From Eledone cirrhosa (Eukaryota), in the NCBI GenBank assembly GCA_964016885.1, contig OZ024743.1, forward strand, positions 43,338,001 through 43,402,000: a DNA stretch of 64,000 bases, in the 5' to 3' direction. Each line of letters begins with the position of its first letter. The stretch's first letter is position 1. Shown piece by piece: positions 6,219-58,591 of the stretch. Below the pieces are notes generated by a model that searched no databases, was not told the DNA's origin, and worked only from the letters and a program-made list of their open reading frames with translations. Made by a program: the position numbers and the translations under genes.

Positions 6219-6392
6219 TACACATGCCTAATAATTAAATAATATAGACACTCTAATATACTCTCAATATTCAACACCAACTAAATAGCAGACAACAGTG
6301 TATATAACAACAATTACTCCAGTATAGATTATGCAACTCCCTATCCTGTCATAAAAAAATGTCAACTCTCTCTGCCAATCCACCGTTGTATA

Positions 6393-6512
6393 TAATAATA
6401 ATAATAAATGTGATTACTAAAATCAAAAGAGGGTTCGATAAGGATAAATATATAGCAAATATATAACAACGATAGAGCAAATATTTATTGCTTAAACTTT
6501 AATCTGTTATTC
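6393..6512. mobile_element. Fragment of PLE family B terminal tail (rearranged)
   Basis: actaaaatcaaaagagggttc...tagagcaaatatttat plus gcttaaactttaatctgttatt match 42330-42520 and 32820-32850. Confidence 0.6.
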
Positions 6513-6578: not shown

Positions 6579-6747
6579 ATAACGAAGGAAATGTGGTAAG
6601 GAATCAGGTGGACCATAACGCACCAAAGTACTCGATACTTGAGGTAGTAGAGTGGGTAATAGGAACCAGTAAGACCCCGACAGCTGAGCTCAAGCTGTTT
6701 CGACGGCGGCTAATTCTGGACAATATATATATATATATATAATTCTG

Positions 6748-9485: not shown

Positions 9486-9727
9486 ATATATATATCGAAA
9501 GGTCGTCCGATATGCTTAGTATATCAGTTCGTCTAGGATTACAGACTCAGGATCGATCTTTTAAAATCTTGCCTCAAGCTGATTGATAGTGAAACATATG
9601 TAATAGGTTATTAAACATGATATGATGCAACACTGAATCCTTGTTCCTTACCCTTATAATACTATACTCTGATCTACGAGTGCTCAACGGCATACAACAC
9701 ACGCTCGCATTTTTCTTGCAACCATAC

Positions 9728-9770
<43 letters not shown>

Positions 9771-10135: not shown

Positions 10136-10140
<5 letters not shown>

Positions 10141-10251
10141 AACCAGTAAGACCCCGGGGTCTTACTGGTTCCTATTACCCACTCTACTACCTCAAGTATT
10201 GAGTACTTTGGTGCGTTATGGTCCACCTGGTTCCTTACCACATTTCCTTCG

Positions 10252-10255
<4 letters not shown>
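10136..10255. mobile_element. Minimal head-to-head family A insertion (20-nt + 100-nt arms)
   Basis: ataggaaccagtaagacccc|ggggtcttactggttcctat...ttccttcgttat with axis 10155/10156, flanked by (TA)n. Confidence 0.9.
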
Positions 10256-10296
<41 letters not shown>

Positions 10297-10306
10297 AACC
10301 AGTAAG

Positions 10307-10400
10307 ACCCCGACAGCTGAGCTCAAGCCGTTTCGACGGCTAATTCTGGACTAAATGAACATTTATCCTGGTATTTAAATAGCCGATCTTCTCAAGGGGT
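10307..10400 (-). ncRNA. Type I hammerhead ribozyme (family A), U3-A8 variant
   Basis: ACCCC-TTGAGAA-GATCGGCTA..TAGCCGTC-GAA-ACGGCT tgagctc AGCTGT-C-GGGGT; predicted cut between 10312 and 10311. Confidence 0.85.
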
Positions 10401-11501
10401 AATTCCATATATGGTCAAAGTGATTGTCAAAAATCAGTAGTAATTCTGTGGTTGCAAATTAGTAGGGCAGATGGTGGCTAAACCTGCCAGTAGGAGAAAG
10501 AGGGGAGGGGGTGGAGTAGACCCAATCAAGCGTTGGTAGTGCCAGCTACAGCTGGGCATGAGGTCAAAGAAGATACAGGGGAGGGGGAGGGGGAGGAAGT
10601 CGGAACAGTAGGTAGAACAATGGGGGGTAAAAATAGGAAAGAAAAAATACTGAGAGTGAAGAAAAGCAAATAAGTGTAAAGAAAAAATTAAATTCTACGA
10701 CCTAGGTGTCAGGCTATTGTTAGGCGAGAATAAAATAAAGAAAGAAAGAAAGAAAGAAGTAAATAAATAAATAAATAAATAAATAAGGAAATAAGTAAAA
10801 GAACTAGGTGGGACGAATTAGGCAAGGACCCTTTTAAGAGGTATAAGTACGTAAATGATACGGTGACTGGTCAACAAAAGGGGCCAAAATACTAAAGAGA
10901 CTACCACGAAATAAACAATAAAGGTTTCCATCCCGGGCCAGCAACGACCCAGTGCAGCAAAGTGAACTTGTACGACATAATAATTCTGAGTCCCGGGAAA
11001 AATATATACTAATGCTAACTCTAAAAGATCTAAAACAAGCTACATGAAAGTTCGTACGAAATAAAGGTAGAATACGGAGAAATAAGTTCAGAATCCACCC
11101 CGCCCAGAAGAAAAGCGAAGCAAGAAATACTGAAACGAAAAAATAAGGCATAAGTGCCACTAAGAAATATAGAGGGCACAGAGAATAGTGGGAGCGGTCG
11201 GAAAAGGGGGGCAAGTATCCGGGGTCTAAGCCAACTGCTATAAAGGGCGGAGTCCGCCAAATCTATCAAAGACTAGGGGAGGGGGAGTGGGGGTACTAAG
11301 GCTACATGGGGCCAAAGGGCAGCCTCGGGTGGGCGAGAAAAGACGCCGACAAAGGAGAAGAGCTGGGGTAGAAGGACAAAGGAGAGAGGGGGGAAGGAAA
11401 TAAAGGATGCGATAAAAGAATACAAAGAAGATCTTACGTCTTCCTTGGCAAGCAGGGGTTACCCATTGCAAAATCGGCAACTGGGGTGTTATAGCCCTAG
11501 T

Positions 11502-13655
11502 CTACCCCCCCGGGTCATTATGGGGTTTGAGGGCGAGGTAAGTCCTACGCAATCTATGTTTACATGCAGTAACCAGTTCATCTTTCTTGTTTAGGAGTTG
11601 GTCCGTCGAAAACAGCATTTGTAAAGTTTCCTCCGAGCATAAATTGCACGGACGGCGTCCTCCCGTGTAAGAATTGGCTCTGGACAGTAATCTCCAAGTG
11701 AGATCATAGGTGATGTTGTTGTCCTTGAGGTCCCATATGTGGCCCGAAAGTGTAGTGGCGTGACGCCGGGCCGGGTTTCGGAAGGTATGTCTATGTTGGT
11801 ATAGCCGGGTCTTGAAGTCACATGCGGTAAGTCCTATATAGGCTTTGTTGGAGGTATCCGTCCTCACGTTGCACTGGTAGATCACATTACGGTCTCTGCA
11901 TCTATTGTCGAGTGGGCAAATAGATCTATCCGGGCAGTTACACCTCCTGGTCGGTTCTCCACTGCTATTTAGGTTATTTCTGCCATCGGGGTTGAGTTTT
12001 TTGTTGTTAGAGGAGACGATGTTTTGTGCGAAGTTTGGTGTAGTGCTGTAAGAGAGTTTGATGGTATTTTTGTTAATTATGTTGTGGTAGCGGTGTTGTA
12101 ATGGGAAGTGTTTTTCAATGAGCCTAAAGAATAGTTTCCCGATGGGAGTAGTCACCTCTGCGTTGTGGGGAGGATTGAACCATGTTACATTGCGTGAGCG
12201 GCGGTGTCTCCTGCTGGTTCCGCTAATGGGATCTGGACAGTAGGATATTTCCTCCCGGAAACCACTCCGCTTGAGGGCCTGGTTGTAATAAGGCGCATGT
12301 TCATCGAATATCCGCTCATTAGCTGACAAACGGGATATGCGGAGGGAGATGTTTTTGACCAGGTTGTTTGTGATGTTCCTAGGATGGTTTGATCGGCGGT
12401 GGATGTAGTGCAGATTGTCATTAGGTTTCCTGTATGGGTAGTACAGGTCGTTTTCGAGGTCGAGGGTTACGTCCAGGAAGTTTACTCGGGTCAGGGACGT
12501 TTGTAGGGTTATTTTAAATCCCCAGTCGCGGAAGAATCTGATTAATTGTTTCCGGACCCGATCTGTACTACTGGGGTTGTACCCTTTAAGGGTAAGGAGC
12601 CCATCATCACGGTACAATCCACCACCGAATGCAGGAAACATATCAGTGAGTTTGGCTATTAGGAATAATCCTATAAGATCAGTGACCTCCGCCGAATCCG
12701 TGGCGCCCATGCTGACGTCGAAGGGTGAGTCGGGAGCTCTTTTTATCCATTTAGAGTCGTCAAAGAGTAAGACTGTCTTCCTGGCGTGGGGGATGATTTT
12801 TCTTTCCTGGTCGGTGATGGGCACGAGTGTTTCGGCGAAGTCCAAGGCGGCAGTAAGTAGCGGTAAGGTGATTGAAGCATAGTAGCTCTCTATGTCGAAC
12901 TGTATGAATTTAGTTTCTCGTTTATCCTCCATATTGCTGAACCAGGAGATTACTTCCTGGGTGTTGATCCATAGGCTAAGTCGGGTGTGTTGCTTGACTT
13001 TTGGTATCACGCGGTCTAGGATTTTTTTGCTGATTCTCCCTATGTCGGACTTCGTTGGGTTAATAAGCCTGATGGAGGGTTTACGGTCAAAATCGGATTT
13101 ATGGTCCTTCAGTGTGAAGTATGGTGTCCGTGGGTCTAGAGGTTCCGTGCGGTCGGCGACCCCGAGGCTGGAGGTGATTTGTTGTCCATCTCGATTTATG
13201 TCCTCGATGCAAGAGTGGTTGGCCTTTTTATAGGTGGAGTTTAGGCTGCTCCTGATCAGTGTGTGGTATCTGTCAGGGTTGACAAAGTATAGGTTCCCAG
13301 TTTTATCCGAATGCACCATGATGTCATTTGTGTTATCATACTCTGTTAAGTTGCTACGGAGTTTTTGTAGGAATCGGTTGTGTCTGGGTTTAAATTTAAT
13401 ATTCTTGACCAGTTGGAAGAGGTCATTCTCGAAGGGTGCGAGCAAGGGGTTCAGGGGCGGAGATTTGTAGGTAATAAATCCGAATCTCTCCTTGGTGCCG
13501 AAGTCTTGGTTGTCGCAATATCTGTCATAGAAAAAAGTTCTCCATCTAAGTCTTTTCGCAAATAGATCAATTTTTTGCGTGAGCATCCGAAGGTAAAGTT
13601 TTTTCGGTGGGATTGGGATGTTCTTGGTAGAGAAGTCAATGTTGTGTTTTCGCAT
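11502..13655 (-). CDS. Intact PLE polyprotein, RT + GIY-YIG endonuclease (717 aa, Naiad-like)
   Basis: ATG at 13655 (MRKHNIDFSTKNIPIP); HSDKT, QFDIESYY, MGA..SAEV.DL.G, YRDDG, NFLDVTL, WFNPP, CNC..C..C, VIYQC..AYIGLT, CNLC, CKH; no stops. Confidence 0.93.
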   Translation of the reverse strand: MRKHNIDFSTKNIPIPPKKLYLRMLTQKIDLFAKRLRWRTFFYDRYCDNQDFGTKERFGFITYKSPPLNPLLAPFENDLFQLVKNIKFKPRHNRFLQKLRSNLTEYDNTNDIMVHSDKTGNLYFVNPDRYHTLIRSSLNSTYKKANHSCIEDINRDGQQITSSLGVADRTEPLDPRTPYFTLKDHKSDFDRKPSIRLINPTKSDIGRISKKILDRVIPKVKQHTRLSLWINTQEVISWFSNMEDKRETKFIQFDIESYYASITLPLLTAALDFAETLVPITDQERKIIPHARKTVLLFDDSKWIKRAPDSPFDVSMGATDSAEVTDLIGLFLIAKLTDMFPAFGGGLYRDDGLLTLKGYNPSSTDRVRKQLIRFFRDWGFKITLQTSLTRVNFLDVTLDLENDLYYPYRKPNDNLHYIHRRSNHPRNITNNLVKNISLRISRLSANERIFDEHAPYYNQALKRSGFREEISYCPDPISGTSRRHRRSRNVTWFNPPHNAEVTTPIGKLFFRLIEKHFPLQHRYHNIINKNTIKLSYSTTPNFAQNIVSSNNKKLNPDGRNNLNSSGEPTRRCNCPDRSICPLDNRCRDRNVIYQCNVRTDTSNKAYIGLTACDFKTRLYQHRHTFRNPARRHATTLSGHIWDLKDNNITYDLTWRLLSRANSYTGGRRPCNLCSEETLQMLFSTDQLLNKKDELVTACKHRLRRTYLALKPHNDPGG

Positions 13656-13840
13656 GGTGCGGGTGAAATGAATTGAGCTTAGCGGAAAAGTCTGGATACG
13701 GCGTGGTAGGGTCGGAAAGTGCTCTACTACGGGAGTAGGAGCTAGATAACGAAGGAAATGTGGTAAGGAACCAGGTGGACCATAACGCACCAAAGTACTC
13801 AATACTTGAGGTAGTAGAGTGGGTAATAGGAACCAGTAAG

Positions 13841-13934
13841 ACCCCGACAGCTGAGCTCAAGCCGTTTCGACGGCTAATTCTGGACTAAATGAACATTTAT
13901 CCTGGTATTTAAATAGCCGATCTTCTCAAGGGGT
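13841..13934 (-). ncRNA. Type I hammerhead ribozyme (family A, upstream pLTR)
   Basis: Identical to 10307-10400; predicted cleavage lies about 190 nt upstream of the ORF ATG. Confidence 0.85.
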
Positions 13935-15036
13935 AATTCCATATATGGTCAAAGTGATTGTCAAAAATCAGTAGTAATTCTGTGGTTGCAAATTAGTAGG
14001 GGAGATGGTGGCTAAACCTGCCAGTAGGAGAAAGAGGGGAGGGGGTGGAGTAGACCCAATCAAGCGTTGGTAGTGCCAGCTACAGCTGGGCATGAGGTCA
14101 AAGAAGATACAGGGGAGGGGGAGGGGGAGGAAGTCGGAACGGTAGGTAGAACAATGGGGGGTAAAAATAGGAAAGAAAAAATACTGAGAGTGAAGAAAAG
14201 CAAATAAGTGTAAAGAAAAAATTAAATTCTACGACCTAGGTGTCAGGCTATTGTTAGGCGAGAATAAAATAAAGAAAGAAAGAAAGAAAGAAGTAAATAA
14301 ATAAATAAATAAATAAATAAGGAAATAAGTAAAAGAACTAGGTGGGACGAATTAGGCAAGGACCCTTTTAAGAGGTATAAGTACGTAAATGATACGGTGA
14401 CTGGTCAACAAAAGGGGCCAAAATACTAAAGAGACTACCACGAAATAAACAATAAAGGTTTCCATCCCGGGCCAGCAACGACCCAGTGCAGCAAAGTGAA
14501 CTTGTACGACATAATAATTCTGAGTCCCGGGAAAAATATATACTAATGCTAACTCTAAAAGATCTAAAACAAGCTACATGAAAGTTCGTACGAAATAAAG
14601 GTAGAATACGGAGAAATAAGTTCAGAATCCACCCCGCCCAGAAGAAAAGCGAAGCAAGAAATACTGAAACGAAAAAATAAGGCATAAGTGCCACTAAGAA
14701 ATATAGAGGGCACAGAGAATAGTGGGAGCGGTCGGAAAAGGGGGGCAAGTATCCGGGGTCTAAGCCAACTGCTATAAAGGGCGGAGTCCGCCAAATCTAT
14801 CAAAGACTAGGGGAGGGGGGAGTGGGGGTACTAAGGCTACATGGGGCCAAAGGGCAGCCTCGGGTGGGCGAGAAAAGACGCCGACAAAGGAGAAGAGCTG
14901 GGGTAGAAGGACAAAGGAGAGAGGGGGGAAGGAAATAAAGGATGCGATAAAAGAATACAAAGAAGATCTTACGTCTTCCTTGGCAAGCAGGGGTTACCCA
15001 TTGCAAAATCGGCAACTGGGGTGTTATAGCCCTAGT

Positions 15037-15473
15037 CTACCCCCCCGGGTCATTATGGGGTTTGAGGGCGAGGTAAGTCCTACGCAATCTATGTTTACAT
15101 GCAGTAACCAGTTCATCTTTCTTGTTTAGGAGTTGGTCCGTCGAAAACAGCATTTGTAAAGTTTCCTCCGAGCATAAATTGCACGGACGGCGTCCTCCCG
15201 TGTAAGAATTGGCTCTGGACAGTAATCTCCAAGTGAGATCATAGGTGATGTTGTTGTCCTTGAGGTCCCATATGTGGCCCGAAAGTGTAGTGGCGTGACG
15301 CCGGGCCGGGTTTCGGAAGGTATGTCTATGTTGGTATAGCCGGGTCTTGAAGTCACATGCGGTAAGTCCTATATAGGCTTTGTTGGAGGTATCCGTCCTC
15401 ACGTTGCACTGGTAGATCACATTACGGTCTCTGCATCTATTGTCGAGTGGGCAAATAGATCTATCCGGGCAGT
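15037..15473 (-). pseudogene. GIY-YIG-only 3' fragment of family A ORF (partial second unit)
   Basis: Identical translation to the C-terminus of 11502-13655. Confidence 0.9.
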
Positions 15474-15488
15474 TTACGGTCAAAATCG

Positions 15489-17081
15489 GATTTTGACCGT
15501 AAACCCTCCATCAGGCTTATTAACCCAACGAAGTCCGACATAGGGAGAATCAGCAAAAAAATCCTAGACCGCGTGATACCAAAAGTCAAGCAACACACCC
15601 GACTTAGCCTATGGATCAACACCCAGGAAGTAATCTCCTGGTTCAGCAATATGGAGGATAAACGAGAAACTAAATTCATACAGTTCGACATAGAGAGCTA
15701 CTATGCTTCAATCACCTTACCGCTACTTACTGCCGCCTTGGACTTCGCCGAAACACTCGTGCCCATCACCGACCAGGAAAGAAAAATCATCCTCCACGCC
15801 AGGAAGACAGTCTTACTCTTTGACGACTCTAAATGGATAAAAAGAGCTCCCGACTCACCCTTCGACGTCAGCATGGGCGCCACGGATTCGGCGGAGGTCA
15901 CTGATCTTATAGGATTATTCCTAATAGCCAAACTCACTGATATGTTTCCTGCATTCGGTGGTGGATTGTACCGTGATGATGGGCTCCTTACCCTTAAAGG
16001 GTACAACCCCAGTAGTACAGATCGGGTCCGGAAACAATTAATCAGATTCTTCCGCGACTGGGGATTTAAAATAACCCTACAAACGTCCCTGACCCGAGTA
16101 AACTTCCTGGACGTAACCCTCGACCTCGAAAACGACCTGTACTACCCATACAGGAAACCTAATGACAATCTGCACTACATCCACCGCCGATCAAACCATC
16201 CTAGGAACATCACAAACAACCTGGTCAAAAACATCTCCCTCCGCATATCCCGTTTGTCAGCTAATGAGCGGATATTCGATGAACATGCGCCTTATTACAA
16301 CCAGGCCCTCAAGCGGAGTGGTTTCCGGGAGGAAATATCCTACTGTCCAGATCCCATTAGCGGAACCAGCAGGAGACACCGCCGCTCACGCAATGTAACA
16401 TGGTTCAATCCTCCCCACAACGCAGAGGTGACTACTCCCATCGGGAAACTATTCTTTAGGCTCATTGAAAAACACTTCCCATTACAACACCGCTACCACA
16501 ACATAATTAACAAAAATACCATCAAACTCTCTTACAGCACTACACCAAACTTCGCACAAAACATCGTCTCCTCTAACAACAAAAAACTCAACCCCGATGG
16601 CTGAAATAACCTAAATAGCAGTGGAGAACCGACCAGGAGGTGTAACTGCCCAGATAGATCTATTTGCCCACTCGACAATAGATGCAGAGACCGTAATGTG
16701 ATCTACCAGTGCAACGTGAGGACGGATACCTCCAACAAAGCCTATATAGGACTTACCGCATGTGACTTCAAGACCCGGCTATACCAACATAGACATACCT
16801 TCCGAAACCCGGCCCGGCGTCACGCCACTACACTTTCGGGCCACATATTGGACCTCAAGGACAACAACATCACCTATGATCTCACTTGGAGATTACTGTC
16901 CAGAGCCAATTCTTACACGGGAGGATGCCGTCCGTGCAATTTATGCTCGGAGGAAACTTTACAAATGCTGTTTTCGACGGACCAACTCCTAAACAAGAAA
17001 GATGAACTGGTCACTGCATGTAAACATAGATTGCGTAGGACTTACCTCGCCCTCAAACCCCATAATGACCCGGGGGGGTAG
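15489..17081 (+). pseudogene. 5'-truncated family A ORF with nonsense codon
   Basis: Same protein as 11502-13655; AGA>TGA at 16602-16604. Confidence 0.9.
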
Positions 17082-18183
17082 ACTAGGGCTATAACACCCC
17101 AGTTGCCGATTTTGCAATGGGTAACCCCTGCTTGCCAAGGAAGACGTAAGATCTTCTTTGTATTCTTTTATCGCATCCTTTATTTCCTTCCCCCCTCTCT
17201 CCTTTGTCCTTCTACCCCAGCTCTTCTCCTTTGTCGGCGTCTTTTCTCGCCCACCCGAGGCTGCCCTTTGGCCCCATGTAGCCTTAGTACCCCCACTCCC
17301 CCCTCCCCTAGTCTTTGATAGATTTGGCGGACTCCGCCCTTTATAGCAGTTGGCTTAGACCCCGGATACTTGCCCCCCTTTTCCGACCGCTCCCACTATT
17401 CTCTGTGCCCTCTATATTTCTTAGTGGCACTTATGCCTTATTTTTTCGTTTCAGTATTTCTTGCTTCGCTTTTCTTCTGGGCGGGGTGGATTCTGAACTT
17501 ATTTCTCCGTATTCTACCTTTATTTCGTACGAACTTTCATGTAGCTTGTTTTAGATCTTTTAGAGTTAGCATTAGTATATATTTTTCCCGGGACTCAGAA
17601 TTATTATGTCGTACAAGTTCACTTTGCTGCACTGGGTCGTTGCTGGCCCGGGATGGAAACCTTTATTGTTTATTTCGTGGTAGTCTCTTTAGTATTTTGG
17701 CCCCTTTTGTTGACCAGTCACCGTATCATTTACGTACTTATACCTCTTAAAAGGGTCCTTGCCTAATTCGTCCCACCTAGTTCTTTTACTTATTTCCTTA
17801 TTTATTTATTTATTTATTTATTTACTTCTTTCTTTCTTTCTTTCTTTATTTTATTCTTGCCTAACAATAGCCTGACACCTAGGTCGTAGAATTTAATTTT
17901 TTCTTTACACTTATTTGCTTTTCTTCACTCTCAGTATTTTTTCTTTCCTATTTTTACCCCCCATTGTTCTACCTACCGTTCCGACTTCCTCCCCCTCCCC
18001 CTCCCCTGTATCTTCTTTGACCTCATGCCCAGCTGTAGCTGGCACTACCAACGCTTGATTGGGTCTACTCCACCCCCTCCCCTCTTTCTCCTACTGGCAG
18101 GTTTAGCCACCATCTCCCCTACTAATTTGCAACCACAGAATTACTACTGATTTTTGACAATCACTTTGACCATATATGGAATT

Positions 18184-18277
18184 ACCCCTTGAGAAGATCG
18201 GCTATTTAAATACCAGGATAAATGTTCATTTAGTCCAGAATTAGCCGTCGAAACGGCTTGAGCTCAGCTGTCGGGGT
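18184..18277 (+). ncRNA. Type I hammerhead ribozyme (family A, inverted arm)
   Basis: Same fold; GUC cleavage predicted after 18272. Confidence 0.85.
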
Positions 18278-18369
18278 CTTACTGGTTCCTATTACCCACT
18301 CTACTACCTCAAGTATTGAGTACTTTGGTGCGTTATGGTCCACCTGGTTCCTTACCACATTTCCTTCGT

Positions 18370-18425
<56 letters not shown>

Positions 18426-18464
18426 TATACACACACACACACACACACACAAAGATATATATAT

Positions 18465-18931
18465 GTAAGTATGTATACGTACATATATATATATGTATTT
18501 CAGGCGTACAGTTGTATGTATATATATACATACATGCACGTATATATATATATACGTAGGTATGGGTTTACCGAACATTTATTATAATGTTCGGTTTGTT
18601 TGCAAACAAACAGCCCGGACAGTGTTCGGCAACCATCGTTGCCCGTTTGTTCAACAAAGGAACGATGAACTAGTTTCAAGCTTATTAGCTATCTTCACCA
18701 TCGTATACCTTCCTGTCAGATGATTGAACGCTTGAAAGTATATACGTTCCTTATGCATATTAACGGCTGAGCAGCCTAATTTGCATATCGAGTGAGTTAG
18801 TCGGCCGGGCGTATCGAAATCAATAAATGGAAAAGAATGAAATTAAATTTCATTTCTCACTCTTAATACGGCTGATACTTAAATGTAAGTATGTATACGT
18901 ACATACATATATGTATACACACGTACAGTAG

Positions 18932-18987
<56 letters not shown>

Positions 18988-19630
18988 CATGCACACATCT
19001 ATATATGTACGTATGGGTTGACCGGACATTTATTATAATGTTCGGTTTGTTTGTAAACAAACATCCCGAATTAAGCCGTACAGTGTTCGTCAACCATCGT
19101 TGCCCTTTTGTTCAACACTGACAAGGAACGATGAACTAGTTTCAAGCTTATTAACTATAGTCAACATCCTATACCTTCCAGTCAGAAGAGTGAACGTCGC
19201 CCGGCCGACTAACTAGCTCGATATGCAAATTAGGCTGCTCAACCGTTAATATGCCTAAGGAAAGTATATACTTTCAAACGTTCAATCATCTGACAGGAAG
19301 GTATACGATGCTGACGATAGCTAATAAGCTTGAAACTAGTTCATCGTTCCTTTGGCAGTGTTGAACAAAAGGGCAACGATAGTTGCTGAACACTGTATGG
19401 CTTAATTCGAGCTGTTTGTTTACATACAAACCGAACATTATAATAAATGTTCGGTAAACCCATACGTACATATATATATATATATATATATATGTGTGCA
19501 TGTATGTATATATATATACATACTACTGTACGTCTGTATACATATATGTATGTACGTATACATACTTATATTTAAGTAACAGCCGAACTAAGAGTAAGAA
19601 ATTAAGTTTCATTTAGTTCTTTTCGATATA
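18465..19630. repeat. Non-coding ~350-400 bp unit: two direct copies plus one inverted copy
   Basis: gggtttaccgaacatttattataatgttcgg...aggaacgatgaactagtttcaagcttatta at about 18565 and 19015 (+) and 19320-19465 (-). Confidence 0.8.
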
Positions 19631-32801: not shown

Positions 32802-32838
32802 CATATATATATATATATTTATTAAAATAACAGATTAA

Positions 32839-32889
32839 AGTTTAAGCAAAGAATCGCTGCTTTCACCCTTAACGGGATCTTCTGAAACT
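32839..32889 (-). ncRNA. Type I hammerhead-like ribozyme (family B), CAGAAGA core
   Basis: AGTTT-CAGAAGA-tCCC gttaa GGGt-GAA-AGCAG cgattct TTGCT-T-AAACT. Confidence 0.65.
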
Positions 32890-33809
32890 AACAAAGTCAA
32901 TCTGTAAACGCAGAACTGGATATTTCAAAAAACGTTGCAACCGGAGGAAGACAGGAAGACGATACTTTGGTTCGTGGTAACGTTCGCTGGCAAAGAACGG
33001 GAAAAAACGAATAATACGTCATTAATAGGAGCGGTGAAAACAATTACGCGCAAAGATAGAACCACGTTTATGGTATAAAAGAGGTCGTAGACTAATGTTC
33101 TCTTAGGTGGTGCATAGAGACGTTCTCTGGCAATGAATGATAAAAAAGAAAATAATAAGTCATATGTGGAGCGTGGAGAACAATAGCACGCAAAGACAAA
33201 ACCACGTAAATGGTATAGCAGAAGTCGTAGACTAAAATTCTAACTAGGAGACCAAATGAATCTCCGCTACAGAGTTAAGAACAAAGTAAATAAATACAAT
33301 ACAGAAGTAATAGAAACAAATAAATACATACACGCAAACAGATACGTACATACACAAGCATACGCAAAACCTTACCATAGGTATACAAAACCACGCACAT
33401 ATAAATATGTGTGTGTGTATGCTTGTGTACAAATAAATAAATAATTATATAAACGTATATAAGTAAATAAATACGTATATAACAAGCGCACACGCATACC
33501 TACATATAAATACACGAATGTTCGGAGACGTAAGTCAACTAAAACAAGAGGTACACATATACACACAGCCACCATACGTACGAACCTGCATAGTCACGCA
33601 GACGCAAAACACCCGTATACACATAGCCAAACCCTAAATACCAGGATATGTAAAAATTATACGCCATGACAGTCAAATATACGTACGAGAAGGTACCTTC
33701 ACAAAACATACGGGTAATATATACTTACCTATGCAAATAAGTAAAGGAATAAACAAAACATATACTTAGCTCCCACATCAAGACGTAAAATATCCACGTA
33801 TCGATCGTG

Positions 33810-35798
33810 TTATCCGTTAGGGTATAACGTGGGGCTGTAATACAGGAAAGTTTTGTGCAATTTATGTTTACAAGCCGAAATTGCCTCAGATTTTTTGTTT
33901 AAGATGTGGTCTTTGGCGTAGAGTATTTCCAGGGCCTCAGCGGCGCAGAGGTCACATGGTCTTTTATTTCCGCTATACGATCTAGCCCTAGCTATGATCT
34001 CCCAGTGTAACTTATATTGGGTGTGGTTGTCTTTTAGACTCCAGATATAAGCTGAAAGTGACGTCACATTCCTTCTTAGAGGGTAACGAAAAGAATGGGT
34101 ATGCATGTAAAGACGCTGCTTGAAACTATTGGCGGTTAACCCTATGTAGTCCCTACGGGACGTGGGTGTTACAACCTTACAATTGTAGACAATGTTACTA
34201 GAGAGGCATTTCCCGGATAGGCAATCAGCCTGATTCCTACAATTACAGTTAGTACTAACTACAGGGTTGCACGTGTTCCTACGGCTAGGTAGTTTAGCTA
34301 AATTTGAAGCTGTGATGTTATGTGCAAGGTTAGGAGTCGTAGAGTAAGGAATTGTAATAGTATTTCTATTAAAAATGTTACTATATTTATGTGTAGGGGG
34401 AAAATGCTTCGAAATAAGGGAAAGAAAGATCTTAGCTAATGGTGTGGCCACCTCCATATTATATGGTGGGTTAAACCAACAAATGCGACGGGATCTATTT
34501 CTTATAGGTCTATTTTCGTACTCTGTATATGCTACCTTATCGACAAATCCACTTCGAGCAACAGCTTCATTGTAATAAGTGGAATGGTTGTTGAAAATGC
34601 GCTCGTTGGTGGAAAGACGGGAAAGCCTCAACGAAACGTTTCTTACCAGGTTCCTGGTTATGCTGGCAGGATGGTTGGAATGCTTACTTATGTAATTAAG
34701 CGTATCATTCGGCTTTCTATACGGGTAATACAACCCATTCAATAAATTGAGGGTAACGTCGAGGTAATTAACGACCGAGAGATTGGCCTCAACCTGTATA
34801 GAGAGGTTGAAGCCTTTAAAGAAGGCTGTGAGTTCTTTTCTGAACCTGTCGCAAGCACGAGGTCCGCACTTAGTCATGGTCAAATGACCATCGTCACGGT
34901 ACAAACCACTGCCCGCGTTGGGGAATTCGTCCTTGATAGAGAAAAGAAGGAAAAGCCCAATAAGATCAGTAACCTCCGCAGAGTCACTGGCGCCCATACT
35001 CTCGTCGAATGGGGTACTATTGGATTTTTTAATCCAAATAGAGTCGTCGAAATTAATCACCGACTTTCGGGCATTAAGGATGACATCAACTTCAAAATCC
35101 TTAACCACTGTGAGTGTTTTAGCGAAATTGATAGCTCTAAGGAGAAGTGGTAAAGTGATGGAGGAGTAGTAATTGTTGATGTCGAATTGGATAAAACGGC
35201 AATGTTCCTTGTTACATATGCCGTTGAACCAATCAATCACCGCGAAAGAATTGTTCCACAGTGCGAGAGGGGCCAAACTTCTAATTTCAGGTATAATTCT
35301 ATCAAGAATCGTTTTACTAAGTCTACCTAAATCGGACTTCGTAGGGTTAATAAGCTGAATAGAGGGGTTGTTCGGAAAATTGGATTTGTGATCCTTCAGG
35401 GTAAAGTGGGGAGAGATAGGGTCCAGAGGTTCGGTCCGGTCCAGGATGTTGAGATCAGATGTGATTTTAAACCCAGCATCGTTGATTTCATTGATGACGC
35501 ACCGATTAGTTTTACGGTAATCCTTAGTTACAGCATTATGTAGTAGTTGATGGTAAGTACTGCGCTCCACTTGATATAGGTTGCCAGTTTTGTCGGAATG
35601 GACGTGCACGGCGTTAGAATCCTTAATAGAACGAATTCTATTCTTCAAGTCTTGCTGGAAGGAATTGCTCCTATTCCGAAATTTGATATTCCGAATGAGT
35701 TCCAAGACATAATTTTCGAAGGGTAGCAATGCTGGGTTCCACGGAGGGTTATTATAGGTTTTAAATCCAAATTTATCCTGTTTGTTGTCTGCTTTTCG
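33810..35798 (-). pseudogene. Family B RT-GIY-YIG ORF, duplicated 5'-truncated copy
   Basis: Same translation as 36244-38265 from RKADNKQ on; upstream part of the ORF-track call is 3' UTR sequence. Confidence 0.85.
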
Positions 35799-36243
35799 CA
35801 AAACCTTACCATAGGTATACAAAACCACGCACATATAAATATGTGTGTGTGTATGCTTGTGTACAAATAAATAAATAATTATATAAACGTATATAAGTAA
35901 ATAAATACGTATATAACAAGCGCACACGCATACCTACATATAAATACACGAATGTTCGGAGACGTAAGTCAACTAAAACAAGAGGTACACATATACACAC
36001 AGCCACCATACGTACGAACCTGCATAGTCACGCAGACGCAAAACACCCGTATACACATAGCCAAACCCTAAATACCAGGATATGTAAAAATTATACGCCA
36101 TGACAGTCAAATATACGTACGAGAAGGTACCTTCACAAAACATACGGGTAATATATACTTACCTATGCAAATAAGTAAAGGAATAAACAAAACATATACT
36201 TAGCTCCCACATCAAGACGTAAAATATCCACGTATCGATCGTG

Positions 36244-38268
36244 TTATCCGTTAGGGTATAACGTGGGGCTGTAATACAGGAAAGTTTTGTGCAATTTATG
36301 TTTACAAGCCGAAATTGCCTCAGATTTTTTGTTTAAGATGTGGTCTTTGGCGTAGAGTATTTCCAGGGCCTCAGCGGCGCAGAGGTCACATGGTCTTTTA
36401 TTTCCGCTATACGATCTAGCCCTAGCTATGATCTCCCAGTGTAACTTATATTGGGTGTGGTTGTCTTTTAGACTCCAGATATAAGCTGAAAGTGACGTCA
36501 CATTCCTTCTTAGAGGGTAACGAAAAGAATGGGTATGCATGTAAAGACGCTGCTTGAAACTATTGGCGGTTAACCCTATGTAGTCCCTACGGGACGTGGG
36601 TGTTACAACCTTACAATTGTAGACAATGTTACTAGAGAGGCATTTCCCGGATAGGCAATCAGCCTGATTCCTACAATTACAGTTAGTACTAACTACAGGG
36701 TTGCACGTGTTCCTACGGCTAGGTAGTTTAGCTAAATTTGAAGCTGTGATGTTATGTGCAAGGTTAGGAGTCGTAGAGTAAGGAATTGTAATAGTATTTC
36801 TATTAAAAATGTTACTATATTTATGTGTAGGGGGAAAATGCTTCGAAATAAGGGAAAGAAAGATCTTAGCTAATGGTGTGGCCACCTCCATATTATATGG
36901 TGGGTTAAACCAACAAATGCGACGGGATCTATTTCTTATAGGTCTATTTTCGTACTCTGTATATGCTACCTTATCGACAAATCCACTTCGAGCAACAGCT
37001 TCATTGTAATAAGTGGAATGGTTGTTGAAAATGCGCTCGTTGGTGGAAAGACGGGAAAGCCTCAACGAAACGTTTCTTACCAGGTTCCTGGTTATGCTGG
37101 CAGGATGGTTGGAATGCTTACTTATGTAATTAAGCGTATCATTCGGCTTTCTATACGGGTAATACAACCCATTCAATAAATTGAGGGTAACGTCGAGGTA
37201 ATTAACGACCGAGAGATTGGCCTCAACCTGTATAGAGAGGTTGAAGCCTTTAAAGAAGGCTGTGAGTTCTTTTCTGAACCTGTCGCAAGCACGAGGTCCG
37301 CACTTAGTCATGGTCAAATGACCATCGTCACGGTACAAACCACTGCCCGCGTTGGGGAATTCGTCCTTGATAGAGAAAAGAAGGAAAAGCCCAATAAGAT
37401 CAGTAACCTCCGCAGAGTCACTGGCGCCCATACTCTCGTCGAATGGGGTACTATTGGATTTTTTAATCCAAATAGAGTCGTCGAAATTAATCACCGACTT
37501 TCGGGCATTAAGGATGACATCAACTTCAAAATCCTTAACCACTGTGAGTGTTTTAGCGAAATTGATAGCTCTAAGGAGAAGTGGTAAAGTGATGGAGGAG
37601 TAGTAATTGTTGATGTCGAATTGGATAAAACGGCAATGTTCCTTGTTACATATGCCGTTGAACCAATCAATCACCGCGAAAGAATTGTTCCACAGTGCGA
37701 GAGGGGCCAAACTTCTAATTTCAGGTATAATTCTATCAAGAATCGTTTTACTAAGTCTACCTAAATCGGACTTCGTAGGGTTAATAAGCTGAATAGAGGG
37801 GTTGTTCGGAAAATTGGATTTGTGATCCTTCAGGGTAAAGTGGGGAGAGATAGGGTCCAGAGGTTCGGTCCGGTCCAGGATGTTGAGATCAGATGTGATT
37901 TTAAACCCAGCATCGTTGATTTCATTGATGACGCACCGATTAGTTTTACGGTAATCCTTAGTTACAGCATTATGTAGTAGTTGATGGTAAGTACTGCGCT
38001 CCACTTGATATAGGTTGCCAGTTTTGTCGGAATGGACGTGCACGGCGTTAGAATCCTTAATAGAACGAATTCTATTCTTCAAGTCTTGCTGGAAGGAATT
38101 GCTCCTATTCCGAAATTTGATATTCCGAATGAGTTCCAAGACATAATTTTCGAAGGGTAGCAATGCTGGGTTCCACGGAGGGTTATTATAGGTTTTAAAT
38201 CCAAATTTATCCTGTTTGTTGTCTGCTTTTCGCGGATTATCGAAATAAAAGGCACGCCAACGCAACCT
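36244..38268 (-). CDS. Family B PLE RT + GIY-YIG ORF (open, lacks roughly the first 35 aa)
   Basis: [59 protein letters not shown]; collinear with family A. Confidence 0.88.
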
Positions 38269-38309
38269 TCGAGCCCTCTTTGGATTTTAGTCTTGAATTT
38301 TATTATTAT

Positions 38310-38401
<92 letters not shown>

Positions 38402-38529: not shown

Positions 38530-38997
<468 letters not shown>

Positions 38998-39125: not shown

Positions 39126-40200
39126 ATAGGAGAAAGTATGACCCCGACGGCAGAGCTCTGGACTAAAGTAAGAGTTTTTTGTCTGGTAAATAAATAGCTG
39201 AACTTTTCAAGGGGTACTTCCTTATATGGGAAGATTGTAGTTGTCAAGAGGATTGGTCAAAATTTGTAGCAGACACAGAAAAGTCTATCATGGCAGTGGG
39301 TGCGGGTGGGGATGGCTGAACTTGCCTCTAGAACGATACGGATGTGCGTAGAGCCGGTGAAGCGTTTAAATTGAAATCTACACGGCAAATTCTAAAAAAG
39401 TAGGCTAGTGGAGGTTGGCGAAAAAAGGTTTCTTTAGAAAGTGGAGGAGGGACGTTATAGAAATTCTAAATCAAATGTGATTAGTGGACAATGAAAAATA
39501 TAATAAAAGAGAATATAATAAAAAAAATGAGAGAAAGATGCATCAGAATGTAAGATTGGGAAGTGAGACGTGAAATAAAACAAAAACTAAGGAGTCTAAC
39601 ACAGCTGCTATATTTAGTGGGTGCTGCTTAATCGGCCAAAGCTAGAGAATGACTTGCTAGATGAGAATTATTGAAAATTTAGAATTAAAAATTGATACCA
39701 GAATTCTGGGGTCTACCACAGCTGCTATGAATAGTTAGTATAGCGTAATCGGCGAATGCTATCTGTAAGTTACAGGGGTGGCGGTAATGAGGCTAACAGG
39801 CCCGATGGGCTGCCTCGGGGTAGGCGAAAGGGGGAAAAAAACAAAGAAACGAACGAGGAAGAAATTTGATGGTAGAAAGAAGTGATAGGAGGAGACAAAG
39901 GGAACGAGAAAACTTAAAGGAAAAAGAAAGAGGTACATATACCTACATAAGTAGGGATTTTCCCAATCTTATTCGGCAAGTGGGGTGTTTCAGCCCTAGT
40001 CTACCCACTGGGATTGTTAGGGGTTTGGCGGCGAGGTAAGTCTTCCCCAATCTGTGTTTGCATGCGGTTACCAGTCCAGAAACGGCTTGAGCTCTGCCGT
40101 CGGGTTCATACTTTCTCCTATTACCCATTCTTCTACCCTAAGTATTGAGTACTCTGGTGCGTTATGGTCCATCTGGTCCCTTACCACAAATCATTAGTTA
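39126..40200 (-). mobile_element. Subfamily A2 PLE: ORF end, 3' UTR and inverted tail
   Basis: LVTACKHRLGKTYLAAKP; partly deleted HHR with core TTGAAAA; inverted arm 40073-40200 homologous to family A tail. Confidence 0.85.
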
Positions 40201-40221: not shown

Positions 40222-40671
40222 GCAAAAGTTTTATTTAAAATTGTTGGGTTACAACGAGTAAATATTTTATAACTGATATAAAGCACTCAACAAGTTTTGG
40301 AGTAGATATACGATATTAAACAAATGGAAACTATATTTATAAAACCATATTTATTTCATTATACATATTTCAGGGATACCATATTAAAAATATGGCATGC
40401 CTTCTTCAGATAAAATACAATATATAAGCAGTTTTATAAATAAATTTGACGTACCATAAACTATTGATCAACTTCCATTTAAAAAACCAAACCAACTTTT
40501 TTAAATGGAAGTTGATCAATATTTTATGGTACGTCAAATTTATTTATAAAACTGCTTATATATTGTATTTTATCTGAAGAAGGCATGCCATATTTTTAAT
40601 ATGTTATCCCTGAAATATATATAATGAAATAAATATGGTTTTATAAATATAGTTTCCATTTGTTTAATATC

Positions 40672-40675
<4 letters not shown>
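40222..40675. mobile_element. Fold-back PLE terminus pair with HHR motifs (40359-40413 minus, 40570-40624 plus)
   Basis: About 180-bp inverted arms around ccaaaccaac; CTGAAGA-agg..ccatatt ttt aatatg..cct-GAAA; left arm about 85 nt longer. Confidence 0.75.
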
Positions 40676-42324: not shown

Positions 42325-42331
<7 letters not shown>

Positions 42332-42520
42332 TAAAATAAAAGATTAAAGTTTAAGCGAAGAATCGCTGCTTCCACCCTTAACGGGATCTTCTGAAACATG
42401 ATTTTGGTATTCTGCGATAAATATTCTGCGATAAATATTTGCTCTACGGTTCTTATATATTTGATATCTATTTATGCTTAATGAGCCCTCTTTGGATTTT
42501 AGTCTTCAAATTTATTATTA
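42325..42520. mobile_element. Family B mini-insertion: HHR arm (minus) plus inverted tail (plus)
   Basis: 42325-42397 matches 32815-32888; 42430-42520 continues the tail in the opposite orientation. Confidence 0.8.
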
Positions 42521-42789: not shown

Positions 42790-42792
<3 letters not shown>

Positions 42793-44630
42793 ACGAAGGA
42801 AATGTGGTAAGGAACCAGGTGGACCATAACGCACCAAAGTACTCAATACTTGAGGTAGTAGAGTGGTAATAGGAACCAGTAAGACCCCGACAGCTGAGCT
42901 CAAGCCGTTTCGACGGCTAATTCTGGAATAAATAGCAGTGGAGAACCGACCAGGAGGTGTAACTGCCCGGATAGATCTATTTGCCCACTCGACAATAGAT
43001 GCAGAGACCGTAATGTGATCTACCAGTGCAACGTGAGGACGGATACCTCCAACAAAGCTTATATAGGACTTACCGCATGTGACTTCAAGACCCGGCTATA
43101 CCAACATAGACATACCTTCCGAAACCCGGCCCGGCGTCACGCCACTACCCGTTCGGGCCACTTATGGGACCTCAAGGACAACAACATCACCTATGATCTC
43201 ACTTGGAGATTACTGTCCAGAGCCAATTCTTACACGGGAGGACGCCGTCCGTGCAATTTATGCTCGGAGGAAACTTTACAAATGCTGTTTTCGACGGACC
43301 AACTCCTAAACAAGAAAGATGAACTGGTTACTGCATGTAAACATAGATTGCGTAGGACTTACCTCGCCCTCAAACCCCATAATGACCCGGGGGGGGGGGG
43401 GGGGTAGACTAGGGCTATAACACCCCACTTGCCGATTTTGCAATGGGTAACCCCTGCTTGCCAAGGAAGACGTAAGATCTTCTTTGTATTCTTTTATCAC
43501 TACCTTTATTTCCTTCCCCCCTCTCTCCTTAGTCCTTCTACCCCAGCTCTTCTCCTTTGTCGGCGTCTTTTCTCGCCCACCCGAGGCTGCCCTTTGGCCC
43601 CATGTAGCCTTAGTACCCCCACCACCCCCTCCCCTAGTCTATGATAGATTTGGCGGACTCCGCCCTTTATAGCAGTTGGCTTAGACCCCGGATACTTGCC
43701 CCCTTTTTCCGACCGCTCCCACTATTCTCTGTGCCCTCTATATTACTTAGTGGCACTTATGCCTTATTTTTTCGTTTCAGTATTTCTTGCTTCGCTTTTC
43801 TTCTGGGCGGGGTGGATTCTGAATTTATTTCTCCGTATTCTACCTTTATTTCGTACGAACTTTCATGTAGCTTGTTTTAGATCTTTTAGAGTTAGCATTA
43901 GTATATATTTTTCTCGGGACTCAGAATTATTATCTCGTACAAGTTCACTTTGCTGCACTGGGTCGTTGCTGGCCCGGGATGGAAACCTTTATTGTTTATT
44001 TCGTGGTAGTCTCTTTAGTATTTTGGCCCCTTTTGTTGACCCGTCACCGTATCATTTACGTACTTATACCTCTTAAAAGGGTTCTTGCCTAATTCGTCCC
44101 ACCTAGTTCTTTTACTTATTTCGATATTTCTTTATTTATTTTTTTCTTTACTTCTTTCTTTCTTTCTTTATTTTATTCTAGCCTAACAATAGCCTGAGAC
44201 CTAGGTCGTAGAATTTAATTTACTTTACTTTTTTCTTTACACTTATTTGCTTTTCTTCACTCTCAGTATTTTTTCTTTCCTATATATTTCTACCCCCCAT
44301 TGTTCTACCTACCGTTCCGACTTCCTCCCCCTCCCCATCCCCTGTATCTTCTTTGACCTCATGCCCAGCTGTAGCTGGCACTACCAACGCTTGATTGGGT
44401 CTACTCCACCCCCTCCCCTCTTTCTCCTACTGGCAGGTTTAGCCACCATCTCCCCTAGTAATTTGCAACCACAGAATTACTACTGATTTTTGACAATCAC
44501 TTTGACCATATATGGAATTACCCCTTGAGAAGATCGGCTATTTAAATACCAGGATAAATTTTCATTTAGTCCAGAATTCGCCGTCGAAACGGCTTGAGCT
44601 CAGCTGTCGGGGTCTTACTGGTTCCTATTA
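42790..44630 (+). mobile_element. 5'-truncated family A copy with inverted 5' tail (42790-42927)
   Basis: GIY-YIG fragment, full 3' UTR, HHR 44520-44613, ends ttactggttcctatta. Confidence 0.93.
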
Positions 44631-46988: not shown

Positions 46989-47202
46989 TACATATGTATA
47001 TTTATATATATATTGTTAAAATTGGCTTGTCTAACGAACGAATGCGGACGTTTCTTGTATTCGTCTTATTCGGGAAACCTCTGGTAATGAGGTAATTATA
47101 TTGTATTGTTTACTATACATTAAATATTAAGCTATGTAACTTACATAGAGCACTCTTCATTCCTCTGAATTTTTCAACGGAAACTTCAATACTTATATAT
47201 AT

Positions 47203-49243: not shown

Positions 49244-49248
<5 letters not shown>
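47203..49248 (+). mobile_element. 5'-truncated family A copy
   Basis: ORF fragment 47203-48030, 3' UTR, HHR 49140-49233 with G5>A (TTAAGAA), ends at +20 into (TA)n. Confidence 0.93.
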
Positions 49249-50177: not shown

Positions 50178-50355
50178 ATAGGAAAAAGTATAACCCAGAC
50201 GGCAGAGCTCAAGCCGTTTCGACGGCTATTAGCCGTCGAAATGGCTTGAGCTCTGCCGTCGAGGTCATACTTTTTCCTATTCCCACTCTACTACCCTAAG
50301 TATTGAGTAATCTGGTGCGTTATGGTCCATATGGTTCCTTACCACAATTTCTTTG

Positions 50356-50359
<4 letters not shown>
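50178..50359. mobile_element. A2-like head-to-head mini-insertion
   Basis: aggaaaaag...gccgtttcgacggcta-t-tagccgtcgaaatggc...atttctttgtta; arms end at the +20 and +100 equivalents. Confidence 0.85.
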
Positions 50360-57287: not shown

Positions 57288-58585
57288 AAGTGGTTACACA
57301 ACAGTTAGTTCACCATACCGAGAACAATTGTTTCACCTCCGCGGATCTTCAGCTTGGGATGTTTATGGTTATAGGAACAGGAAGGACAACAGTACGAACG
57401 CGCATGCGCATAAACTCGATCACTTCACACAGGCAATACTAGATTGCGTGCGGGAGGTGTTAGGGAGATAACTGCGAATGTCCGGAAAGCTTTTAGGTTG
57501 AAAATAAAATTTAAAAAAATTAAAAATAACATTACAAAGAATCAGTCCGGAGCCTTGTAGTTTCTCTCCCACTAGCAACAACACCATTAATAAATGTAAG
57601 CGCATCAATAGACAAACTATCTGGTTCTCTCCTCCCTTCTCACTCAACGTTAAAACCAATGTAGGAAACAAATTTCTAGCCCTTTTACATAGATACTTCC
57701 CCATATGTCATAAATATCGCTCCATCTTTAACCGACACAAAGTTAAACTACGATAATGCTGCACTAAGAACATGAAGGCCCATATCACCAGCAGCCCTAG
57801 GAGCAACACCCCACCAGGGTACTCTGGCCGTAAGCCTGAAGCTTGCCCCCTTCAATAGCAATGCAACACACCAGCTGTATTCTATGAAGCTGTGGTCACT
57901 TTCAACCGACCAAACGAACCACAGGAGGTCAAATCCTATGTGGACATGGCGGAGGGCTGATTCAAGGAGCGTTTCCTGAACCACCAGTCTACATTCAGAT
58001 ACCCGGACAGACGTTCATCCACGAAACTTACGAGCCACGTATGGTCCCTCAAGGACTCAAGTATAGGTTACTCTATTCAATGAAATGCCATAACTAAGTC
58101 CAAGTCATACGCAATGGGAAATCAGACGTGTGGCTTATGTATTGACGAACGAATATTTATCCTAAAGAGATTATGCAATAGTGATTGCCTAAACACGAGT
58201 AGTGAATTTTTCACACGTTGTCCACACATGACCAAACATCTATTGCATAACTACAAGGCTCCGGACCGATTCTTGTAATTTTATTTTTAATTTTTTAAAT
58301 ATTATTTTCAACCTAAAAGCTTGCCGAACTCTCGCAGTTATCTCCCTTACACCTCCCGCACGCAGTCTAGTATTGCTTGTGTGAAGTGATCGATTTTCTG
58401 CGCATGCGCGTTCGTACGATTGTCCTTCCTGTTCCTATAGCCATACACATCCCAAGCTGAAGATCTGCGAAGGTGAAACATTGGATCTCGGTATGGTGAA
58501 GAAACTGTTGTGTAACCACTTCTACCTAACTCGTCCCTTGGACTGAGTGCTCTACCACTACGGATATTACCTTGCAGTGTTCGAC

Positions 58586-58591
<6 letters not shown>
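57288..58591 (+). mobile_element. Naiad-like PLE family C, 5'-truncated with inverted pLTR; HHRs 57318-57357 (minus) and 58452-58491 (plus)
   Basis: IWFSPPFSLNVKTNVG, FKERFLNH, HVWSLKD, CGLC, CPH with stops; about 280-bp inverted arms; CTGAAGA..GAAACAATTGT. Confidence 0.85.

Follow-up and report, generated by a model that had tools for sequence, protein, structure and literature searches.

A doubled, covarying hairpin marks the two ends of Hydra-clade Penelope-like element insertions and suggests priming at both target ends

This analysis concerns a 64,000-nt stretch of the genome of Eledone cirrhosa (contig OZ024743.1, forward-strand positions 43,338,001 to 43,402,000), called here the window, and the Penelope-like elements (PLEs) within it, above all a Hydra-clade family designated A. 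Two-armed PLE insertions in the window consist of inverted arms set in (TA)n, and one arm carries a tail that the other lacks. The main finding is that a bulged hairpin, GCTC...YY-GAGCACT, is present twice between the ribozyme and the open reading frame (ORF). This duplicated hairpin, and not the cut of the ribozyme, is the reference point for the ends. I propose that each end of the cut target primes reverse transcription at a different hairpin on one RNA, a reading to which I would give a probability of roughly 0.55.

Two end points in family A

The window, rich in (TA)n, contains a TMEM131L exon near 46200 and is animal DNA. Family A has a unit length of 3534 bp. Its ORF, ribozyme and insertions are as follows (A2 is treated together with A).

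11502..13658, minus strand: intact family A ORF, 718 aa, reverse transcriptase (RT) plus GIY-YIG, Hydra-clade PLE; frame open from 13856, first ATG at 13655
13841..13934 (approximate outer limits), minus strand: type I hammerhead with U3-A8 core, found by motif search; the minimum-energy fold shows three stems
10292..18372, both strands: two-armed family A insertion in (TA)n, arms 99.6% identical (self-BLAST and sequence)
10292-15474, element on minus strand: left arm of 10292..18372, short +20 end, 1.46 units of 3534 bp
15483-18372, element on plus strand: right arm of 10292..18372, long +100 end
15472..15504: head-to-head junction of 10292..18372, a residual 33-bp palindrome with a 3-nt tip (sequence and BLAST)
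10136..10255: mini family A insertion whose +20 arm and +100 arm meet precisely at the ribozyme cut
39126..40200: A2 insertion with a short-ended left arm of about 950 nt and a long-ended right arm of about 120 nt
42790..44630: A insertion with a long-ended left arm of about 145 nt and a short-ended (+22) right arm of about 1700 nt
50178..50359: A2 mini insertion with its short end on the left and its long end on the right; the junction, at about -33, is near-symmetric
6579..6721, minus strand: single-armed A copy with long end
47202..49248, plus strand: single-armed A copy with short end

Positions are counted from the predicted hammerhead cut, which lies between 13846 and 13845 in the minus copy and at 18272/18273 in the plus copy. 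An original prediction made from the letters of this stretch held that A and A2 end at two fixed points, and all twelve of the ends it listed do so. Short ends lie at +20 (10136, 10292, 39126, 49248, 50178) or +22 (44630), long ends at +100 (6579, 10255, 18372, 50359) or, owing to 1-nt indels, at +99 (40200, 42790). It also held that five insertions have one end of each kind, and they do. Taken by itself this result is weak, with a chance of 0.03 if ends are independent and 0.13 by permutation. Family A sequence continues beyond both end points in the tandem junction (13743-13846), from which it can be seen that TAT is common to element and (TA)n flank at each of them.

The head-to-head junction at 15472..15504 adjoins a 1145-bp microhomology deletion in the left arm and was probably symmetric originally. 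Single-nucleotide differences among the three copies within 10292-18372 are private changes and give no order of events. The mini insertion contains a perfect 40-bp palindrome (10136-10175) centred on the ribozyme cut, with both arms ending at -1/+1, as if both complementary DNAs (cDNAs) had run off ribozyme-cleaved RNA. It is a single case, and no joint at the ribozyme cut is present in genome-wide reads among the matches listed. Cleaved RNA as the usual template is unsupported: one exact case (10136-10255) has, by rough estimate, a 20-25% chance of arising among A junctions.

Other families in the window

An inverted-repeat census of the window gave twelve clear two-armed insertions, five of family A, three of B and one each of C, D, E and F. 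Family G was excluded, its three arms being readable either way.

32815..38310: family B (Hydra clade), with the short end on the left and, on the right, a long-end arm of 40 nt
42325..42520: family B mini insertion, long arm starting at the short site, arms without overlap; hairpin 1 at 42441-42489 (weak model match, E 1.3)
6389..6512: third family B insertion, mini, long left, short right, arms without overlap
57288..58591: family C, Hydra-like, short left, long right; hairpin 1 at 58529-58551
59081..62521: family D, PLE-like, long left, short right, no GCTC/GAGC hairpin
38530..38885: family E palindrome, long left, short right, no hairpin match
40222..40675: family F palindrome, long end on the left and short end on the right; hairpin 1, minus strand, at 40303-40282
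18460..19630: family G, three arms (short, long, long), pairing ambiguous

All twelve pair a short end with a long one, for which the chance is 2e-4 with independent ends or 1.5e-3 by permutation. The asymmetry that the original prediction had noticed outside family A is confirmed there, the tails measuring about 80 nt in B, 67 in C, 55 in D, 62 in E and 86 in F; the third B insertion (6389/6512) had escaped it. The short end of the latter, at 6512, is about 7 nt shorter than those of the other two. TAT or something similar is common to end and target at A, as the prediction had it, and at B, D, E and F; at C only 1 nt is shared. What did not survive is the measurement from the ribozyme. The distance of the short end from the cut is specific to the family (+20, +29, +33, +52 or +131), and the cut was rejected as a ruler for the ends.

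Single-armed copies are common. Seven of the eight that were classed have the long end (A at 6579, E, K, L and three of I, against A at 49248), with K and L classed by spacing and family H left out.

9770-9978: single-armed family E copy, long end and 5' end identical in position to those of 38530..38885
9495..9731, plus strand: single-armed copy of family K with its hairpin at 9666 and its end 65 nt beyond that, a long end by spacing
47013..47193, plus strand: single-armed family L copy, hairpin at 47119-47158, end 62 nt beyond it, a long end by spacing
58645..58906, minus strand: family I copy with a hammerhead remnant
42029-42197 and 50481-50662: family I tail-only pieces, extending from a TA patch near +17 as far as the long end

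Some further features of these families deserve mention. The family E arms (38738, 9770) have a common 5' end, as do those of family G (18823, 19197), which suggests fixed RNA 5' ends; in family G the 5' end of one arm is joined straight to the long end of another. The single-armed family H piece at 40710-40880 has a canonical hammerhead (cut at 40760, minus strand) and ends at about +51. Within family B, a 2434-bp internal duplication (33363-38233), 100% identical, links the 3' untranslated region (UTR) to the ORF and is either a recent template jump or an assembly artefact.

A hairpin present twice

The hairpin module, of about 25 nt, consists of a 4-bp GCUC/GAGC stem, a 2-nt bulge on the 3' side, a covarying inner stem and ACU, with a UA-rich patch 0-8 nt before it. 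(The names hairpin 1 and hairpin 2, like the family letters G-L, were coined in this analysis.) An alignment of A, B and 26 of 120 listed relatives led to 77 loci from metagenomes (best 80 of 442), in 58 clusters, of which 55 loci had an unpermuted full match. Of these 55, 36 have two copies of the word GAG[CT][AG]C[TC] in the 200 nt before the ORF, 13 have one copy and 6 have none. Its density there is 40 times that within the ORF (85 matches in 9421 nt against 26 in 114562 nt). Upstream of the GAG word there is [AG]CTC in 60 of 63 cases, compared with 12% in shuffles, so the GAG word is the 3' side of a hairpin.

The four outer pairs are invariant across 62 hairpins and say nothing about structure. 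The inner pair, across the 2-nt bulge, was not used in selection, and it is paired in 61 of the 62 (42 C-G, 19 U-A, one unpaired), a value reached by none of 500 shuffles (maximum 54). Pairing extends to the next two positions inward, 37 of 57 (shuffle maximum 34) and then 23 of 33 (shuffle maximum 21). Such shuffle counts are not probabilities: related sequences can beat them. Both types of inner pair occur within hairpin 1 (14 and 10), so the variation is not merely a difference between hairpin 1 and hairpin 2. Bulges of sizes other than 2 nt give no covariation signal. The loop is 8-19 nt long. One outer pair is G-C in marine loci; families A, C, F and K of the window have A-U there, which may reflect one event.

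The two motifs are separated by 54-74 nt (n=29), which matches the tails of 55-86 nt. TAT is found within 10 nt upstream of 46 of the 62 hairpins and downstream of only 9. The family A copies are:

13794..13820, minus strand: hairpin 1 (ACTC...GAGT form), +26 to +52, 5 nt 3' of the short end
10181 and 18298, plus strand, and 42864 and 6653, minus strand: further copies of hairpin 1
13718..13742, minus strand: hairpin 2 (GCTC...GAGC form), +104 to +128, lying 3' of the long end by 3 nt, visible in the tandem junction only

A covariance model, R1, was built from the marine loci without sequences from the window. Applied to the window it finds eight sites at E<0.05, all eight in pseudo-long terminal repeat (pLTR) regions of PLEs, including one family that had gone unnoticed. 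The best match is family A hairpin 2 (E 2.4e-5). The motif is also carried by Hydra consensus sequences in the supplement of Craig et al. 2021, twice at the start of Hydra-1_Ajap. Rfam has no match to the hairpin at E<=1 (L005 60-330), and none at gathering score in the window.

Two observations on the same region may be added. The family A tail repeats a stretch of about 17 nt, at +10 to +27 and +72 to +87 (e.g. 18282-18299 and 18344-18359), possibly a trace of the duplication that gave two modules. The family A reading frame is open across the entire tail and both hairpins (13655-13856), 67 codons before the first ATG.

The ends follow the hairpins

Self-comparison of the loci from other organisms gave 26 3' junctions in all, and 20 of them lie -4 to +8 nt from a hairpin, whereas 1.8 would be expected at random and 3.5 at TA sites. 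The misses are in L017, L027 (two), L030, L031 and L070. Counting one per cluster would give 20/22, a figure that omits four rows, all of them misses (L027 twice, L031, L070), so the lower fraction is used. By eye, the junctions are split about evenly between the two hairpins. The corresponding gaps from end to hairpin in the window are 5 and 3 nt in A, about 2 in B, about 7 in C and about 2 in F.

These numbers bear on the idea that the hairpins have some other role, in translation, in packaging or as a promoter word in DNA, and that the ends merely fall at TA-rich patches matching (TA)n. Hairpin 2 does lie about 20-45 nt ahead of the ORF start in most loci, GAGCACTC is near-palindromic, resembling a DNA site, and the TA patches are real. 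However, the junctions favour those TA sites that adjoin a hairpin, by the margin just given, and the covariation together with the variable loop length points to a single-stranded structure. I consider this explanation very unlikely.

The reading that ends are positioned by hairpins was then set against 13 further loci, animal-derived contigs in prokaryote bins, which were inspected by eye once the rule had been fixed. (The presence of animal PLE contigs, L078-L090, inside prokaryote genome bins is host contamination of the assemblies.) Both ends could be read in eight two-armed units. Six of these are short/long, and their gaps are about 3-7 nt wherever a continuation of the element is present; the long ends of L086 and L088 were classed by spacing, and L078 and L089 were unreadable. 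L030, from the first set, is likewise short/long. L088 (2022-2119) and L090 (5888-8445) contain sequences that span site 1 to site 2 in direct orientation. Arms that share an end point, which the prediction took to be uncommon, number none of the twelve clear units in the window and may account for two of the eight held-out units (L082 and L085).

Those two cases would suit a scheme in which the hairpins set both RNA start sites but target ends choose between them independently, often on different RNAs, and symmetric units are later lost from genomes or assemblies. Such a scheme can call on the lack of strand preference of the Poseidon element PAc from Anolis in vitro (Frangieh 2024, PMC11167929), on the existence of short/short and long/long units, and on extra units in one arm, which suit two RNAs. 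But short/long units are equally palindromic at the centre and yet survive (the D arms are about 1.7 kb), and symmetric junctions and stops at site 1 imply a common template. Independent choice seems to me improbable, and I continue with two primings on a single RNA.

End points in genome-wide reads

Four of 22 listed public read runs (X1, X4, X6 and X20), under three organism labels, were aligned to window positions 13026-14225. Depth collapses at the +100 point in all four, with values before and after it of 3.03 million and 10.8 thousand in X1 (about 280-fold), about 11100 and 34 in X20 (about 330-fold), 855 and 0 in X4, and 66 and 0 in X6. Loose ends in (TA)n on the 3' side were counted among the matches listed. 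In X1 there are 257 at +100 and 41 at +20, out of 1094 partly aligned contigs; in X20, 8198 and 3181 out of 20356 reads, with a further 775 at a diverged-subfamily version of +100; in X4, 4 and 3; in X6, 3 and 1 (contigs). The reads of X20 are restriction-site-associated DNA (RAD) reads, which pile up at one cut site (13879) and are not independent events. Because the loose ends sit at +100 and +20, family A ends are not dispersed under any of the three labels.

It is also seen in the reads that 13746-13880 is about 300 times deeper than the ORF, a figure partly inflated by other subfamilies. Most genomic copies appear to be short pieces of pLTR only.

The observation behind the original prediction, two fixed ends on opposite strands, is thereby confirmed, in the reads as in the window. 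Its interpretation, defined priming sites with one for each nicked strand, is partly supported: two sites with TA microhomology, one per arm, are found in the window, in reads and in other organisms, whereas priming per strand is something I infer.

How the ends might be made

Comparison shows that the ends are fixed, that a structured motif is doubled, where this motif sits, that a TA patch accompanies it, and that pairing is biased. From these I infer that protein binds, that both strands are nicked, that the two target ends prime at separate hairpins of a single RNA, and that the cDNA ends are joined. The scheme would run as follows. The RT-endonuclease would bind each hairpin, probably two copies per RNA, and would cut both strands of the (TA)n target. 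Each target 3' end would pair with a UA patch and prime a cDNA. The two cDNAs would extend toward the RNA 5' end and their 3' ends would be joined head to head by microhomology repair, which would produce inverted arms and, on one side, a tail as long as the distance between the hairpins. The distal cDNA may go no further than the proximal site, leaving non-overlapping arms or tail-only inserts. It may instead stall in the ribozyme (-24 to -48), or reach the same RNA 5' end and so give symmetric junctions. One end priming by itself would give a single arm, usually from the distal site. The fullest form of the proposal is a programmed twin priming, in which the doubled hairpin docks two RT-endonucleases on one RNA, each presenting a UA patch to one (TA)n end, and the tail is the spacing of the hairpins; this is tentative, and I would put it at slightly below even odds.

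As in twin priming of the L1 type, head-to-head arms with each 3' end at the target flank are found in all twelve window insertions; any target-site duplication would be masked by the (TA)n. The arms fail to overlap in three of the twelve, all of family B, and in L088 (9253-9355); in the other window units they overlap. Two of the B insertions (6389/6512 and 42325/42520) and that of L088 have arms meeting at site 1.

The most serious competitor is that only one priming occurs and that the first cDNA then snaps back and copies itself. The second end would come from an endonuclease cut, or from a stop in synthesis, at the TA patch by the hairpin in single-stranded sense DNA, and the hairpin would be a guide to DNA cleavage, besides or in place of an RNA signal. 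Self-priming has been proposed by Arkhipova 2013 (PMC3846280) and tail resolution by a nuclease by Craig et al. 2021 (PMC8557442). Fold-back predicts near-symmetric junctions, such as six of the twelve window insertions have; the tip at 15472-15504 retains natural cDNA sequence through the 3-nt loop; and the extra unit in 10292-18372 is accounted for. It meets difficulty elsewhere. The short-end arm is much longer than the long-end arm in four window insertions, so it is not a copy of the long-end arm as it stands. These and the non-overlapping arms would require central deletions, and it would be a coincidence that three of these end at site 1. Two cDNAs joined end to end suit the zero-loop palindrome at 10155/10156, and the two arms of 50178/50359 show about 4 differences in 51 nt, for which age could account. 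I judge fold-back unlikely, though less so than the other alternatives.

Several points weigh against two primings on one RNA. The short-end arm of 10292-18372 has a whole extra unit that one pass on one RNA leaves unexplained and that fold-back or later recombination explains better, and the half of the window junctions that are near-symmetric are as fold-back also predicts. Families D, E, G and I have asymmetric ends without a GCTC/GAGC hairpin, and family G may be long/long. A model of naked-RNA folding gives the hairpins a predicted pairing probability of only 0.05 and 0.31. The range of -4 to +8 was chosen after seeing the data (17 of the 26 junctions are at 0 to 6). The six short/long units of the held-out set are all from a single assembly. 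L082 (4181-8026) has two short ends, though its host flank is inverted and duplicated as well, and L085, on a collapsed short-read contig, is long/long; an end in L084 is 33 nt from the hairpin, and the inversions of L059 and L084 begin inside the ORF. Long ends outnumber short ones 2.6-6 fold in the reads, among the matches listed, a ratio that is no clean test because diverged subfamilies align via the tail only and RAD reads pile at 13879; single long arms and an alignment bias toward the conserved tail both raise it. The start sites of PAc show neither a strand difference nor homology to the target (Frangieh 2024, PMC11167929).

The family A protein and ribozyme

The family A protein is a single ORF with RT and C-terminal GIY-YIG (YRDD core at 349, YIG at 607). 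It has RWR at 38 as its RWK motif, SDKT at 117 (DKT replacing DKG), a CxCX5C linker at 573, CxxC at 671 and CxH at 699, and CCHH is absent as read by eye. A Pfam search gave no match for the family A or B ORFs, so the assignment of A to the Hydra clade rests on motifs and relatives, the former as defined in the available parts of Craig et al. 2021 (PMC8557442). Relatives of the protein number 278 out of 6689 candidates, and none among 124 candidates in viral_contigs. Identity to the family A protein is 52% for B and 31% for C; family D has no tblastn match to the Hydra proteins tried. Family A inserts into (TA)n, as the Hydra clade does. Its 3534-bp unit exceeds the length of generally <3 kb ascribed to the clade, owing to a long 3' UTR; that length is a tendency and not a defining trait.

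The U3-A8 core of the hammerhead is a variant described earlier (Cervera 2014/2020). An Rfam scan of the window gave no match to the hammerheads, and its microRNA matches were rejected as palindromes and TA runs. The family B hammerhead (32843 and 42352, minus strand) has an odd core, with A replacing U4 and GAAG in one copy, and its activity is doubtful.

Other features of the window

New copies enter the TA flank of older ones, tail to tail, in L036 (2350-2410), L011 (2600-2620) and the window (10255/10292); L036 also holds a tail-only piece from another family. At 6823-8452 there is a separate PLE, 5'-truncated and broken, with a GIY-YIG match and (TA)n on both sides. Non-long-terminal-repeat retrotransposons occupy 30183-32420 and 3299-5935, one an intact 745-aa RT with zf-RVT, one a broken RT element. 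A dispersed short repeat with a B-box-like word (2318-2505, 6075-6224, 26344-27466, 51609-54030), frequently in inverted clusters, is by eye probably a tRNA-derived short interspersed element.

Relation to known systems

L1 twin priming, reportedly the proposal of Ostertag and Kazazian in 2001, is said to have both target ends prime on one RNA, with a head-to-head inversion and a microhomology join. The second site there is reportedly chosen opportunistically, and the arms are said to be free of overlap, whereas here both sites are fixed by RNA structure, they lie near the pLTR, and the arms often overlap. Small hairpins fix the end of an element at a set distance in other systems, namely the 3' stem-loops of LINEs (long interspersed elements) such as eel UnaL2, and the ends of IS200/IS605. 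Unlike those, the present hairpin is doubled and lies beyond the copied part, on the 3' side of the start point.

The Hydra clade as described in the accessible parts of Craig et al. 2021 (PMC8557442) resembles the present elements in protein, with an RWK-type motif, DKT, CxCX5C, CxxC, CxH, no CCHH and, at the C-terminus, GIY-YIG. It resembles them also in its hammerhead, its (TA)n targets, its tandem and inverted arms and a tail often at one end. The tails given there for PLEs in general, often on one arm only, are 30-40 bp, as against 55-86 nt here. The parts of that paper's text and supplement text available to this analysis make no mention of the hairpin or of the short/long pairing rule. 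Penelope of Adineta vaga (Arkhipova 2013, PMC3846280) likewise has inverted pLTRs, an optional tail on one of them and palindromic junctions; the account in the sections available explains these by self-priming, possibly on an antisense template, and names no cis signal.

Closest is PAc, in the portions of Frangieh 2024 (PMC11167929) consulted. In vitro it uses two internal start sites downstream of the ribozyme, which are the tail limits; both strands are nicked and extended, the enzyme is modelled as a dimer and the targets are AT-rich. Genomic 3' ends at two points downstream of the ribozyme are thus common to PAc and the present families. PAc differs in that its start sites lie in an AC-rich stem-loop that lacks target homology, and no duplicated signal is described in those portions; here each site has TA microhomology and its own hairpin on the 3' side. 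By eye, the printed PAc template contains no GCUC/GAGC twin. Two start sites bounding a one-sided tail are therefore already known, and the two sites of the original prediction are this known tail. What is new is the doubled, covarying hairpin as a ruler for both ends. Rfam and searches of the full-text literature, as far as its accessible portions go, yielded no account of the doubled hairpin or of PLEs using twin priming.

What the doubled hairpin would mean

The inverted arms of PLEs with a tail on one side, and their targeting of microsatellites, are called an open problem by Craig et al. 2021 (PMC8557442). Frangieh 2024, in the portions available, found two start sites, and not what specifies them nor how the second end arises. 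A 25-nt doubled, covarying element at both sites offers exact targets to mutate, move or duplicate, and gives curators a rule for setting the boundaries of Hydra elements. If the proposal is true, there would be a defined cis signal for the choice of start site in the sister group of telomerase, and a route by which both ends of an insertion are attached by priming, both junctions being made by reverse transcription. The long-unexplained tail of PLEs would then be the spacing of two hairpins.

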